Source: Thermotoga sp. (lineage in GTDB: Bacteria > Bipolaricaulota > Bipolaricaulia > Bipolaricaulales > Bipolaricaulaceae). From it: 47,650 nt of DNA. Positions within the stretch are counted from its first letter, which is position 1. Each line of letters begins with the position of its first letter. The translations under genes were made by a program, and so were the position numbers. Location: contig DYGJ01000001.1 in assembly GCA_020724765.1 (NCBI GenBank), forward strand, positions 1 to 47,650. Reading direction: 5' to 3'. A model generated the notes under the pieces. The model was given only the letters and a program-made list of their open reading frames with translations, was not told where the DNA came from and did not search any database. Below, in pieces: positions 7,016 through 11,667 of this stretch.

Positions 7016-7746
7016 CCACAGCCTCCGCCCGACGGCTTGGGTGGCGGACCAACCGCGGGCAGGATCACGTGCAGCACCGCGGCCGAGCGCCCCACAGCTC
7101 CGCGATCATCCACCACCGTCAGGGTCACGGTGTACACGCCCTCCTGGTGATAGACATGCTCCGGGCTCCACCAGGTCGACGTCTCCCCGTCGTCAAACTC
7201 CCACAGGGCCTGAACCACAACCCCATCGGGATCGTCTACGTCCGCTGTGAACCACACCACGTCCCCCGTCTGAGGCTGAGCGGGATACACCCGTAGCCGC
7301 ACAGAGGGTGGCGTGTTCTCAGGAAGGGAGAACAACTCTTCGGGCGACAAGTACCACGGGTCGATCTGCCCGGGTGCCCTCCACGGGACGCGGCCGAGGA
7401 ACACGCCACGGGTGAACTGTCCATCCTGATCGAGGGGTGGGAACCCGGGCAGCACCGGAAGGACAACTCTCTCCCCACCCTCTCCCCACCACCACACGAG
7501 AACCCACCACTCCTCTCCAGAGCGGGCAAGTTCGACGGAAAAGCCCAACGACGCGAGCCGTCCAGCGACAAACAGGGAGAGCTGGCGATCCTCCCACCCG
7601 AGTCGCATCGGGCACCCGCCGCACCCAAGCCGCCAATCTGCCAAGATGGCTTCAATCTCCGCCACCCGGGAAGTGGCCACACCGATCGGCCACGGTCCGA
7701 CAACCACACCCAGAGTTACAATGCCGATCAGGAATAACGTTCGCAC
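7003..7746 (-). CDS. Exported PKD-domain protein
   Basis: N-terminal hydrophobic segment; DPDG..V...WEFDDG...PEHVY...GVYTVTLTVVDDRG is a PKD domain; ends GGGCGCGG. Confidence 0.8.
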   Translation of the reverse strand: MRTLFLIGIVTLGVVVGPWPIGVATSRVAEIEAILADWRLGCGGCPMRLGWEDRQLSLFVAGRLASLGFSVELARSGEEWWVLVWWWGEGGERVVLPVLPGFPPLDQDGQFTRGVFLGRVPWRAPGQIDPWYLSPEELFSLPENTPPSVRLRVYPAQPQTGDVVWFTADVDDPDGVVVQALWEFDDGETSTWWSPEHVYHQEGVYTVTLTVVDDRGAVGRSAAVLHVILPAVGPPPKPSGGGCGCGG

Positions 7747-7749
7747 AAC

Positions 7750-9120
7750 TCATCCCTCCTCCGGACGGCGAAGGAACGTCGGGATGTCGAGGTCCTCGTC
7801 GGCCGTTCGCCGGGGGATCACGGGACGGACCCGTTCTTTCTTCTTCTCCTCCTCCTCCTCGACGGCGACTCCGCGAAAGTCGGCGGCAATCACGGTGACC
7901 TCCACTGCGCCACTGTTTTGAGCTTGGATCACTGCCCCGAACGTGATATCCGCTTCTGCCGCTGCGGACTTGCGAATCGACTCAGCCACCTGGGTCACTT
8001 CGGTCAAGGTGAGATCCTCGCTGCCGGTGATGTTGAGAAGAACCCGCCGCGCCCCCTTGATCGTCCCCCCTTCAAGGAGGGGGTTTGTCACGGCGGCTTT
8101 GGCCGCGCGGAGGGCGCGGTTTTCCCCATGAGCCTCCCCCATGCCCATCATCGCCGTTCCTGCACCGCGCAACACCGACGCCACATCCGCGAAGTCCAGG
8201 TTCACCAGGCCAGGCACGGTGATGAGGTCGGAGATCCCCCGCACGCCGCGCAAGAGCACGTCATCAGCGAGTTCGAACGCCTCGGTGACCGAGATGTTGG
8301 GAGCGATCTCCAGCAGCCGATCGTTGCGAACCACGATAAGGACATCGGTCTTCTCCCCCAAGCGCGCCAGCCCAGCCTGTGCGCGTTGAGATCTCAGCTC
8401 TCCCTCAAACGAGAACGGCAACGTGACCACACCCACCGTGAGCGCCCCCCGCGAGCGGGCGATCTGGGCCACGACCGGCGCAATGCCTGCGCCCGTCCCT
8501 TTGCCAAGCCCGCACGTCAGGAACACGAGGTGGGCCTCGGCAATGAGGTCCTCGATCTCCCCCGCCGCTTCCTCGGCCGCCCGGCGCGCTTTCTCGGGGT
8601 CCCCTCCTGTGCTCCGGCCGTGGGTCACCCGCTCTCCAAGGAGCAGGCTCGATCCGCTGCGAAAGGCCGATAGCACTTGACGATCGGTGTCGAGGGCCGC
8701 AAGGCGGACCCCAGCCAGTCTTGCCTCACGCATCCGGGCAAGCGCGTTGATCCCCCCACCCCCGATCCCGAGGACAAGAATCCGTGCCGGAGTCACGGCC
8801 TCGCGGACGAGGGACGTTTTCTGGGGAGAGGACGCTTCGGTCGCCTCGCCAAACGGAAGCTGACGCTCGTCGCCTGGGTCGACCAGGTGCACCTCCAGTT
8901 CACCAAAGACCGTGCGTACCGCCTCGACGAGCTTCCCCATCTTGCGCTGGACGTACTCCTTCTTGAACGACGACTCGATCTCAATGAGCAGGGCGCCGCG
9001 TTCCCGACGAACCTTGCCTATTGGCACAGGAAGGCACGCACGCAACATCCGGTCCTGAACTTCTCCTAGGAGTTGCCTCCACTTCTGGGCAAACTCTTCT
9101 TTCCCTCGTTCGCGGTCCAT
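7750..9120 (-). CDS. ftsZ: Cell division protein FtsZ with a ~110-aa N-terminal extension containing a DnaA domain I (KH-fold)-like domain
   Basis: GIGGGG, GLGKGTGAG (tubulin signature variant), PFSFEG, NDRL, GLVNLDFADV (T7 loop), LLNITG and C-terminal peptide DLDIPTFLRR. Confidence 0.95.
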   Translation of the reverse strand: MDRERGKEEFAQKWRQLLGEVQDRMLRACLPVPIGKVRRERGALLIEIESSFKKEYVQRKMGKLVEAVRTVFGELEVHLVDPGDERQLPFGEATEASSPQKTSLVREAVTPARILVLGIGGGGINALARMREARLAGVRLAALDTDRQVLSAFRSGSSLLLGERVTHGRSTGGDPEKARRAAEEAAGEIEDLIAEAHLVFLTCGLGKGTGAGIAPVVAQIARSRGALTVGVVTLPFSFEGELRSQRAQAGLARLGEKTDVLIVVRNDRLLEIAPNISVTEAFELADDVLLRGVRGISDLITVPGLVNLDFADVASVLRGAGTAMMGMGEAHGENRALRAAKAAVTNPLLEGGTIKGARRVLLNITGSEDLTLTEVTQVAESIRKSAAAEADITFGAVIQAQNSGAVEVTVIAADFRGVAVEEEEEKKKERVRPVIPRRTADEDLDIPTFLRRPEEG

Positions 9121-9157
9121 GGCCTATCAACCATTGTGGCGATCGCCGCAGAACCCG

Positions 9158-9805
9158 TCAACTCGCGGACCGCACCAATTCGGGGATCGGTTGGAAGTGG
9201 TGGACCACGGTTCGCGCTGCTGCTGCCACCTCTGGCACCTTGGGGGCGTACGCGATCGCGTGCCCCACGGCCCTGAACACCGGGATGTCGTTCAGATGAT
9301 CCCCCACAAACGCGATCTGGTCGAGGGAGAGACCCAACCGGCTGGCCTGCTGCTCGACGACGCCGAGCTTGTCCGCCAGGCCCACCCGGACTACCGCCTC
9401 TCCGGTGAACCGCCCAGCGGCGGTGAGAAGTTCGTTGGCCACCGCGAACGAGAGGGCGAGATCCCTCCGCACCCACTCCGCAACGAGGCTCACCCCCGAG
9501 GAAACGATCCCCAGGATATAGCCAGCCCGACGGAGCTCGGTGAGCGCTTCCGGCACGCCGGGGGCATAGGGCGGCGGGAGCAACGCGGGCATGACGCGGG
9601 CAACCGGAACCCCGCGGAGGAGAGCTGCGTTCTCTCTCACCCAGTTCGGATACTCGTCCAGTCGCCCGCGGTAGCGATCGAGAAGCTCATCCCACAGCGG
9701 TCCCACTCCTGCAGCGGCCCCAAGCGCGCCCCAGGTCGACTCGAAGGCGACCCCATGGTAGCGAACGAGGGTTCCGTCGAGATCGAAGAAAACCGCGCGG
9801 ATCAC
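9158..9805 (-). CDS. HAD-IB family phosphatase (phosphoserine phosphatase-like)
   Basis: FFDLDGTL, IVSSG, conserved Lys and FVGDHLND HAD motifs; ANEL....GRFTG as in SerB. Confidence 0.85.
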   Translation of the reverse strand: MIRAVFFDLDGTLVRYHGVAFESTWGALGAAAGVGPLWDELLDRYRGRLDEYPNWVRENAALLRGVPVARVMPALLPPPYAPGVPEALTELRRAGYILGIVSSGVSLVAEWVRRDLALSFAVANELLTAAGRFTGEAVVRVGLADKLGVVEQQASRLGLSLDQIAFVGDHLNDIPVFRAVGHAIAYAPKVPEVAAAARTVVHHFQPIPELVRSAS

Positions 9806-11667
9806 GGACTAGAGATGAGCCTGATCTCCCGTCCTAGTCCGTGCTCAGCGAGCACCCCTGCTGGAACCTCAAGCGCCATTGTGAACGGATCAGCTGCCCC
9901 GTACAGGTCCTTCGAGTCTGCCTCCATCGTGTTCCGACCAAGGAATGCTCCATCAACAGCGAAAAACACGATGTCAAGCGGAAGAAAAACATTCTTCATG
10001 TGGAACTGGCTGGGCACTGGCTCCTCGAACACGAACAGGATGGAAAGGTCCTTTCCCATCTCGACGGGAATCCCCTGGAACCCGATGAACCGCTCGTGGG
10101 GAAGAGCAGCCACACGTGCGGAAAGACTCACCCGCTTCCCAGAAGCATCCTCCAAGGTCAGCACCCGGTCATGCATAGTTCCCACGACACCCGGGAGGCC
10201 TGGGTAGAAACCGCGATCCATGAGCGGAGCCGGATCCTGACCTCCTCCGCCAAACGGGATCGGAAGATCACCGATTCCATCACCATCGGCGTCTCTGCCC
10301 GCGTAGTCGGAATACCAGTTGCCTCGACCGTAGGGCGCCCACGTGTTCTTACCCAGATCACGCGCAGCTCGACTGTGCCCCCACAGGAGGTTCTCGTAGA
10401 TCTGGGTCCCGGTGGTCTCGGTCCCAAAGTACAGGCTATCTGTACAGCGGTAGAGCACATTGTGGCGGACAACGTTGTCGGTGGGGGTGGCTTGAGAGTA
10501 GGCCTCTTCGAAGATGATCCCGATGTTCGCCCGCGCGATGAGGTTTCGCTCGTAGAGCCCGTACGAAGCGACAGAGGAGATCCCATATCCCACTTGCACC
10601 ATGGACGAGTAGGCCACCCGGGGGTGGCTCGCCCCGCCCTCGATGAACACGGCAACATCGGACTCGGTAAATGCACACAGCTCGACCACGGCCCCGCGCG
10701 ACGTCTCAATCTCGACCCCGTGGCGGTTTTGGTAGAACAGACCCTGTTGGATCAACGTATCCTGCGCTCCCCCTGTGATGCGGACTCCCACCGGGTTCGC
10801 AGCGAAAACGTTGTTCCTGATGACCACGCCATCGGAGCCATTCACCACGATCCCCTCGATCTGGTTGGCGTACACCCCGCAGTTCTCGATGTGCACACCA
10901 TCCGAGAGCAGTACGGAGATACCAGCCTGAACACAGTTCGCGATTCGTGGCGAGTCAACGACCACCGTGTCCGGCGAGGAGAAGATGAGAATGCCGTTGC
11001 CCTGAGCACGAGAGATGTCAGCATTTTCGATCCGCACACCCTCCGAGAGGACGACCATGATCCCATCCCCTCGGTCGATCTTCGCCCCGCGCAGGGTCAC
11101 GTCGCGGCATGCAGCGAGCATGATGTAACCTGCGGCGACGTCCTCGAGGGTCTGATTGGAAAGACCGTAGTAGTAACGGACTTCCTGGCCGTTTACCGTG
11201 TTGGTGGGTTCCACAGCGTGTCGAAAATGCTCTTTCTCCAGACCCAGGACCTGGAGCCCAATCCCTCGCACGCCGAGGAAGTTGTCTCGCACCGTGATGT
11301 CCCGCGACGTTCGGATGAGCATCCCGTTAATGCTGTCTGTAACCGTACAATCCTCAATCGTTCCCCCGCTCGTATTGGCAAGGTAGATCGCCGCACCGCG
11401 GGTGTCCATCGCTCCGGTTACCATGCACCCGCGAACGACGAACGAGGCTGTGGTGCCCTCAATGCGGATCCCATAGAGATCCCCTGAGGACACACGGACC
11501 TGCCAGCCTACGATCAGATAGGGATCACCCGGCGTGCCCGTCCCTCCGATCACCCCGTTCTCGGCAGTGAAGTCAGCATCGCTGAGAATGACAATGGGGC
11601 CGCGCTCCGCGGCGACACCCATAGCAAAGACTAAACCCACCAACAGAACCCCGATTGCCCTACGCAT
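9802..11667 (-). CDS. Exported right-handed beta-helix (NosD/CASH-like) protein fused to a C-terminal DUF192 domain
   Basis: Signal peptide, GTGTPGDPY.I, repeated N..GI.I rungs, GNWYSDY.G.DADGDGIGD.P; C-terminal LFVF....FHMKNVFLPLDIVF...ALEVPAG is DUF192. Confidence 0.8.
   Translation of the reverse strand: MRRAIGVLLVGLVFAMGVAAERGPIVILSDADFTAENGVIGGTGTPGDPYLIVGWQVRVSSGDLYGIRIEGTTASFVVRGCMVTGAMDTRGAAIYLANTSGGTIEDCTVTDSINGMLIRTSRDITVRDNFLGVRGIGLQVLGLEKEHFRHAVEPTNTVNGQEVRYYYGLSNQTLEDVAAGYIMLAACRDVTLRGAKIDRGDGIMVVLSEGVRIENADISRAQGNGILIFSSPDTVVVDSPRIANCVQAGISVLLSDGVHIENCGVYANQIEGIVVNGSDGVVIRNNVFAANPVGVRITGGAQDTLIQQGLFYQNRHGVEIETSRGAVVELCAFTESDVAVFIEGGASHPRVAYSSMVQVGYGISSVASYGLYERNLIARANIGIIFEEAYSQATPTDNVVRHNVLYRCTDSLYFGTETTGTQIYENLLWGHSRAARDLGKNTWAPYGRGNWYSDYAGRDADGDGIGDLPIPFGGGGQDPAPLMDRGFYPGLPGVVGTMHDRVLTLEDASGKRVSLSARVAALPHERFIGFQGIPVEMGKDLSILFVFEEPVPSQFHMKNVFLPLDIVFFAVDGAFLGRNTMEADSKDLYGAADPFTMALEVPAGVLAEHGLGREIRLISSP

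Follow-up and report, generated by a model that had tools for sequence, protein, structure and literature searches.

A second FtsZ of Bipolaricaulota with a predicted replication-type domain at its N-terminus

The window analysed here, a stretch of 47,650 nucleotides from a genome of the uncultured phylum Bipolaricaulota (contig DYGJ01000001.1 of assembly GCA_020724765.1, positions 1 to 47,650), encodes the second of two FtsZ proteins of its host, here called FtsZ2, in which a complete FtsZ is preceded in frame by a linker and a predicted KH-like domain. Within the literature searched, an FtsZ2 with such an N-terminal domain is an undescribed FtsZ architecture. Searches for work on FtsZ in Bipolaricaulota or Acetothermia, on FtsZ fused to KH, DnaA or DciA domains, and on N-terminal extensions of FtsZ found no description, with most subscription journals outside their scope, and public databases label FtsZ2 simply 'cell division protein FtsZ'. 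Plastids and rhizobia have FtsZ pairs, as do archaea (FtsZ1/FtsZ2) and, reportedly, Odinarchaeota; the present pair resembles these, which likewise have two genes per genome and diverged roles. To our knowledge, no second FtsZ paralog has been described with a replication-type domain fused in front.

The ftsZ2 gene and its FtsZ core

The gene and the parts of its product lie in the window as follows.

9133..9161, minus strand: sigma-70-type promoter, TTGACG-17-CACAAT (pattern, and recurrence at related loci)
7750..9120, minus strand: ftsZ2, 456 aa, the genome's second FtsZ (single open frame, Pfam)
8872..9120, minus strand: N-terminal KH-like domain, residues 1-83, of the DnaX-C/DnaA-I/DciA group (predicted model, profiles)
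9028..9057, minus strand: helix 2 and loop, residues 22-31, the most conserved element of the domain (mean top-residue share 0.85), with a DnaX-C-like pattern
8932..8976, minus strand: helix 3, residues 49-63, conserved and basic (mean net charge +2.6), holding F52 and Y56, like the lineage's DnaA-I
8791..8871, minus strand: variable linker, residues 84-110, predicted disordered, 17-37 aa in homologs by the analyst's column bounds
8302..8784, minus strand: Tubulin/FtsZ GTPase domain, residues 113-273, with clade-wide D144, R169 and T/A171 and genus-level K207 (Pfam, alignment)
8185..8202, minus strand: T7 loop catalytic residues N307, D309 and D312, invariant in 113 of 113 homologs
7876..8160, minus strand: FtsZ C-terminal domain, residues 321-415 (Pfam)
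7765..7788, minus strand: conserved C-terminal peptide, residues 445-452, letter-identical to that of the ftsA-linked FtsZ

An earlier note on this DNA had described a complete FtsZ with an ordered N-terminal extension and a linker, and that description stands, since the single frame, the Pfam domains and the order and disorder predicted by AlphaFold2 agree. Pfam places Tubulin (PF00091) on residues 113-273 (E 1e-37, 130.6 bits against a cut-off of 33) and FtsZ_C (PF12327) on residues 321-415 (E 1e-28, 100 bits against 27). In the full-length AlphaFold2 model (pTM 0.67), residues of about 10-80 are ordered (block pLDDT 87-92) and residues 85-109 are disordered.

The same note had raised two possible objections, that the true start lies near the GTPase core and that the assembly is chimeric, and both are countered. 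The promoter-like sequence TTGACG-17-CACAAT lies at 9161-9133 with the ATG 12 nt downstream (one element found, against 0.1 expected in shuffles), a distance that implies a very short leader. In a pattern search, the same element with its 17-nt spacer precedes the ftsZ2 start at 23 of 25 related loci, where starts were script-picked as the nearest start codon 5' of the conserved motif; the remaining two have a near variant, TTGACT-17-GAGAAT. An ungapped public contig from run X2, which may be the source sample, covers 7104-9170 and with it the whole of ftsZ2, and full-length homologs at 52-86% identity exist in other species belonging to two families, both of which argue that ftsZ2 is not chimeric. 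The conserved promoter ahead of Met1 and the unbroken contig argue in turn that the start and the fusion are real.

It is scarcely credible, then, that the N-terminal domain is a functionless passenger or that the real start is near the core. The only match among RNA contigs, of 202 bases, does fall in the core rather than the domain (these contigs are uninformative on starts or absence), and FtsZ2 orthologs that lack the domain exist, as described below. However, the promoter sits immediately 5' of Met1 at nearly all of the loci surveyed, the domain is widely kept (see below), and among 113 full-length homologs its mean identity of 50% exceeds that of the linker (35%) and the tail (31%), the core standing at 66-70%. 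Across 12 same-genus loci, pN/pS is 0.35 for the domain, 0.61 for the linker and 0.19 for the core; as judged from sequence comparison, the domain is under purifying selection.

The core keeps the residues on which assembly and hydrolysis turn in Staphylococcus aureus FtsZ (D46, Q48, R143, N208, D210 and D213; PMC8936486). By motif these map to D146, Q148, R243, N307, D309 and D312, and all six are kept in FtsZ2, R243 being present in 96% of homologs and replaced by Lys in 4%. In the tubulin signature loop, G204, G206, G208, T209, G210 and G212 stand at 97-100%, with position 211 variable. Other nucleotide-site positions have changed. Position 144 corresponds to S. aureus N44, whose side chain holds Mg-bound waters (PMC8936486), and is Asp in 113 of 113 FtsZ2 homologs versus Asn in 25 of 25 ordinary copies. 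Changes from Leu to Arg at 169 and from Ala to Thr at 171, in the loop contacting the gamma-phosphate mimic, run through the FtsZ2 clade; G121 has become Asp in 58% of homologs, and G207 has become Lys in 24%, including the window's protein (K207, in the signature loop), a genus-level change. From these residues we infer that FtsZ2 binds GTP and polymerises, probably with altered turnover.

The earlier note spoke of this product as the Z-ring protein; it is a paralog rather than the canonical Z-ring FtsZ, and its gene does not lie behind ftsA. The host's other FtsZ, FtsZ1, does; it is encoded 3' of ftsA on contig C110, in a cluster whose reading frames look, from their first residues, like ftsW, murG, murC, murB and ftsQ, and which ends in ftsA-ftsZ. 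FtsZ2 is 52% identical to FtsZ1 over the core and shares with it, and with canonical FtsZ, the GTPase and C-terminal domains, intact T7 residues and the C-terminal peptide. It differs from canonical FtsZ in its extra folded 83-residue domain and linker, its locus outside the division cluster and its nucleotide-site changes. The C-terminal peptide has a mean identity of 65% among homologs. Each of the 29 f1 and f4 genomes in which FtsA was detected has a single FtsA match (f1, f4 and the like denote families of the phylum), and because the two FtsZ proteins of the host have identical C-terminal peptides, both are likely anchored through this FtsA.

In the window, ftsZ2 has as neighbours genes for a HAD hydrolase, a PKD-domain protein and a NosD/DUF192 protein. 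The last of these (9802-11667, minus strand; 621 aa) combines beta-helix/NosD repeats with a C-terminal DUF192 and adjoins ftsZ2 in eight f1 loci. The f4 neighbours, which in the analyst's reading look like RNase H, D-aminoacyl-tRNA deacylase and a response regulator, are wholly unlike those in f1, and no replication or division genes adjoin ftsZ2 in the f1 and f4 neighbourhoods. At one locus (L145, G041:C32:16000-34000), both ftsZ genes lie 8 kb apart on the same contig and strand.

Fold and relatives of the N-terminal domain

Modelled alone by AlphaFold2 from a 25-sequence alignment, the domain has a mean pLDDT of 88.4 and a pTM of 0.74. Its predicted elements run helix-helix-strand-strand-helix-helix-strand, the order described for Bacillus subtilis DnaA domain I (PMC4285326). 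Foldseek puts DnaA domain I at the top (4TPS, TM 0.68, E 0.015), DciA at ranks 4-6 and the tau C-terminus lower (TM 0.58-0.60 to chain E of 5FKV and 5FKU), with no match to the domain model reaching E 0.001. VIA-align, in which nothing reaches Z 8 for the model, ranks DciA best (Z 7.4 and 7.3, rmsd 2.7-3.2 over 76-79 residues), followed by two ribosomal chains (6.8), DnaA-I (6.3), RbfA (6.2 and 6.1) and the tau C-terminus (5.7); ribosomal and RbfA KH domains, at Z 6.0-6.8, are thereby level with DnaA-I. The predicted fold is that of the group common to DnaA domain I, DciA and the DnaX/tau C-terminus, and the particular member is indistinguishable by structure. To this extent the proposal of a KH-like folded domain from the DnaA-I/DciA/DnaX-C group is borne out by the predicted model, on which Foldseek and VIA-align agree.

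The narrower proposal, that the extension belongs to the DnaA_N family (PF11638), is not supported by comparison of profiles. Only 2 of 25 members match DnaA_N (best E 0.017), and a PF11638 search of 184 genomes did not pick up the ftsZ2 loci. The Pfam DnaX_C family (PF20964) matches 16 of the 25 at E<=1 (best 7.5e-6), DciA (PF05258) weakly matches 14 (best E 0.0027) and STICHEL DnaA_N-like matches five; the window's own domain scores 12.1 bits against the DnaX_C cut-off of 26.2 and 13.8 bits against the DciA cut-off of 24. When hhalign was run against profiles of the lineage's own proteins, DnaX-C reached 94% (E 1e-7, 72 columns), DnaA-I 47% (E 2e-4, 56 columns) and DciA 13% (24 columns), with reversed-profile controls below 0.5%, and DnaX-C was the winning profile in 28 of 30 resamplings. 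Sequence profiles thus favour DnaX-C, and the label 'DnaA domain I' is too specific. A PDB sequence search with the domain profile gave three short chance matches (best E 0.59). In the ESM Atlas, the nearest clusters are unnamed proteins of 86-99 aa (0.91-0.94), with STICHEL DnaA_N-like, PolC N-terminal and DnaA_N clusters below 0.9, all of these being leads only; the full protein falls with a 76-member Bipolaricaulota FtsZ cluster.

The likeness is a mosaic, in which helix 2 resembles DnaX-C and helix 3 resembles the lineage's DnaA-I in both pattern and charge. The C-terminal domain of DnaX (tau), which is PF20964 or domain V of E. coli tau, is the best profile and shares the predicted fold and the helix 2 pattern, but it sits at the C-terminus of a clamp loader, whereas the FtsZ2 domain is N-terminal on FtsZ, and its helix 3 is acidic in this lineage (-2.1), whereas that of FtsZ2 is as basic as in the lineage's DnaA-I (+2.6 in both). 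DnaA domain I shares the element order, the top Foldseek row, an N-terminal position on a linker, an invariant Trp in helix 1, a Phe opening helix 3 and, in this lineage, the basic helix 3; the FtsZ2 domain nevertheless falls below that family's threshold, has an unlike helix 2 and has no AAA+ initiator behind it. The helicase loader DciA provides the top VIA-align rows and the weak Pfam matches, but is the weakest match among the lineage profiles.

Conservation among 121 domain sequences is concentrated in helix 2 (0.85) and helix 3 (0.78) and is 0.45-0.57 elsewhere; helix 1 stands at 0.55, though its W14 is invariant. W14, D23, L26, C29, P31, F52, K53, Y56, R59 and K60 are each present at 96-100%. 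In DnaA domain I, DiaA, DnaB, HobA and SirA are bound through helices 2 and 3 (PMC5448010, PMC4285326). By analogy, the conserved elements of the FtsZ2 domain are the helices that correspond to this partner-binding face. With its basic character, helix 3 could equally well meet nucleic acid, an acidic protein or DnaB.

RNA-binding KH domains carry a GxxG loop between two core helices. The FtsZ2 domain lacks this loop between helices 3 and 4, where positions 59-63 read R-K-x-x-K, and this counts against a reading in which the basic helix contacts nucleoid DNA, single-stranded DNA at the fork or RNA, making FtsZ2 a self-contained nucleoid-occlusion device. The net charge is also modest (+0.7 over 83 columns, +3.0 over residues 10-80), and since helix 3 of the lineage's DnaA-I is equally basic, the charge may be a family trait. 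Such binding would nonetheless suit the basic residues K53, K54/R, R59, K60 and K63, which are kept in 88-100% of the 121 sequences, and the structural matches to RbfA, Era and ribosomal KH domains (Z 5-6.8). Single-stranded nucleic acid is a known ligand of KH folds, and weak ssDNA binding is described for E. coli DnaA-I (PMC5448010). On balance, a role in nucleic-acid binding seems distinctly unlikely.

Distribution, descent and genomic setting

Of 184 Bipolaricaulota genomes searched with the domain profile, 120 contain the domain, each in a single match. Carriers make up 46 of 49 genomes of f1 plus the host genome itself, 69 of 74 of f4 and 4 of 4 of f11, that is 120 of 128 in these three families, so the extension is kept in relatives, a point that the earlier note had left to be checked. 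The profile search found the domain in 0 of 56 genomes of eight other Bipolaricaulota families. The fused protein was read directly at a subset of the loci in the 120 genomes. Named homologs are assigned to Bipolaricaulota/Acetothermia, one being labelled Caldiserica, and one of 81% identity bears the name Ca. Bipolaricaulis sp.

Among the matches read, the domain was not found apart from FtsZ, either standing alone or in another fusion. A search of 1.84 billion representatives gave 19 matches. Twelve of the best 14 were fetched, and each proved to be an FtsZ2 N-terminus, a fragment, or an N-terminus joined to a foreign tail in a short or partial record; the 14 also include one full FtsZ2 and one 48-aa piece, and the weaker matches comprise one repeat match and four unread. 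Ten short proteins with the domain are the same fragments or are labelled partial. The Tubulin domain is present in 118 of 120 longer proteins among the matches listed, with at least 84 further matches.

In trees built from the core only, the extended copies form one clade (support 99/97 and 100/99), and the split inside it, f1 versus f4 plus f11, repeats the split of the ordinary copies, which indicates vertical descent. Second FtsZ copies that lack the domain occur in f3, in f8 and in one f6 genome (G078). They lie at L131:5253-6287, L133:3169-4287, L215:683-1822, L217:1444-2535 and L222:1459-2535. They share Asp144 and Thr171, and position 169 is Arg in the f3 and f8 copies and Thr in the f6 copy. 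The trees join the f3 and f8 copies to the extended clade and set them apart from every ordinary copy (100/97 and 100/99). The G078 copy, absent from all trees, is assigned by its motifs alone. No split-off gene for the domain was found upstream of the domain-less orthologs, in a search that included L222. The existence of domain-less FtsZ2 orthologs argues that FtsZ2 has a job that does not need the domain. We infer from these sequences, all FtsZ trees being unrooted, that the simplest history is an old duplication, the domain being acquired later on the stem lineage leading to f1, f4 and f11. The first tree missed 7 of 49 sequences, including two domain-less orthologs, and later trees added these while omitting 11 and 21 rows.

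Two further substitutions were seen in FtsZ sequences of the phylum. The f8 copies carry Asn in place of the first T7 Asp and, like L222, a changed residue following the T7 Asp. In the ordinary FtsZ of several f5, f7 and f9 genomes (L156, L158, L164 and L167), Arg replaces the hydrophobic residue after the T7 Asn.

Relocation of the domain from DnaA, DnaX or DciA was considered and is ruled out, because in the genome or its lineage each of these proteins retains its own copy; for DnaA, retention of domain I in the host genome was a check proposed with the original description and gave a positive result. Directly behind dnaA lies a dciA-like gene with a C-terminal CxxC-x-CxxC (L003:180-776, G000 contig C24), an arrangement seen at 26 of 29 related dnaA loci. 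PF11638 exceeds its cut-off in 0 of 36 genomes of f3, f5, f7, f8, f9 and f10, and in the remaining families it has a match in 46/49, 67/74, 4/4, 18/19 and 1/1 genomes. These six families form one clade in the unrooted FtsZ1 tree, and judging by the profile search DnaA appears to be without domain I across this branch, whose initiator would then be without its helicase-recruiting, dimerising domain. Three DnaA frames that were read (L206:788-1936, L207:781-1869 and L208:856-1968) begin just 5' of the AAA+ domain. Co-loss of the FtsZ2 domain with DnaA domain I, f3 and f8 being without both, was dropped, since G078 has a domain-less FtsZ2 and an intact DnaA-I.

Several other replication and division proteins were sought. 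No DiaA-like SIS protein exceeds the cut-off in any of five genomes. DnaE was not found in the host genome, which is 84% complete, and is present in 5 of 5 relatives. At the dnaB loci of G003, G018, G025, G028, G034, G037 and G040, the DnaB match breaks off at query residue 388-431 although the open frame runs to 624-954 aa, a pattern suggestive of inteins. MinC, SepF and ZapA were each found in 0 of 41 genomes of the class, whether or not these carry the fusion.

Possible roles of the domain

The reading that we tentatively prefer, as possible rather than probable, is that the domain serves as an adaptor by which FtsZ2 filaments are tied to a replication protein on the chromosome, DnaB helicase being the most plausible candidate. 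The case for it is made by the fold group, the DnaX-C profile, the conserved helices 2 and 3, and the analogy with DnaB binding, since DnaB binding is described for both DnaA-I and DnaX domain V, and DciA has the same fold (PMC9912922). The domain would have been added to a pre-existing FtsZ2, probably from the 3' end of dnaX. FtsZ2 filaments would reach the membrane through the single FtsA, by way of the C-terminal peptide, and would likely join a ring built by FtsZ1, while the helix 2/helix 3 face would bind a replisome or helicase-loading protein. Holding FtsZ2 at the replication machinery, or releasing it, might then bias the place or timing of the ring, in a phylum whose searched genomes yielded no MinC, SepF or ZapA. 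That a clamp-loader-derived domain lets a division filament bind the helicase or replisome directly, and so couples the place or timing of the ring to replication while dispensing with go-betweens of the Min, Noc, SlmA or MipZ type, is rather doubtful.

Several observations stand against a tether. The neighbourhoods of ftsZ2 have no replication genes and share nothing between f1 and f4; domain-less orthologs exist; and families that lack the fusion also lack detected MinC, SepF and ZapA. The structural matches stop short of E 0.001 in Foldseek and Z 8, RNA-binding KH domains score equally well against the model, and the window's domain, at 12-14 bits, lies below the Pfam cut-offs of 24-26. The analogy itself has exceptions: DciA needs its C-terminal part, not its KH domain, to bind DnaB (PMC9912922), the contact between DnaA-I and the helicase had been demonstrated only for E. 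coli as of a 2017 review (PMC5448010), and no DiaA-like protein exceeds the cut-off in the genomes searched for one.

The missing ZapA and SepF could instead point to bundling, in which the domain dimerises or binds FtsZ or another divisome protein and cross-links filaments in their place, the replication-like fold being ancestry only. E. coli DnaA-I dimerises through its helix 1 Trp (PMC5448010), and the corresponding W14 is invariant here; the linker is flexible at 17-37 aa, and the C-terminal linkers of FtsZ1 are acidic (mean net charge -6.2) and could meet the basic helix 3. However, helix 1 is otherwise poorly conserved, the full-length pTM of 0.67 roughly equals the fraction of the chain made up by the core, a hint that the predicted domain is not packed in a fixed way against its own core, and ZapA and SepF are missing from fusion-free families as well. 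Bundling is unlikely as an explanation of the domain.

That ftsZ2 stands apart from the division cluster under a promoter of its own, and that its nucleotide site has changed across the clade, might also be expected of a shape protein, that is, an FtsZ2 that acts at poles or prosthecae rather than as a division regulator and whose domain recruits a lineage-specific factor. An Acetothermia bacterium from a digester is described with bipolar prosthecae (PMC6092417), and the close homolog from Ca. Bipolaricaulis sp. was noted above. This role is very unlikely: the C-terminal peptide is identical to that of FtsZ1, and the paper on the prosthecae credits bactofilin and a PBP, with no 'fts' in its main text, supplements apart (PMC6092417).

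A replication tether thus remains the tentatively preferred reading, and it bears on a wider problem. How division is coupled to replication in bacteria is an open question, and the known links go through separate regulators. An FtsZ with a replication-type contact domain, present in nearly every genome of three families, is a candidate direct link, and it shrinks the question to one 9-kDa domain, a few candidate partners in the same genome and one conserved face. The predicted fold of DnaA-I, DciA and tau would here be reused outside replication proteins. Even if the partner is not a replication protein, FtsZ2 is an undescribed FtsZ architecture in a phylum in which MinC, SepF and ZapA were not detected.
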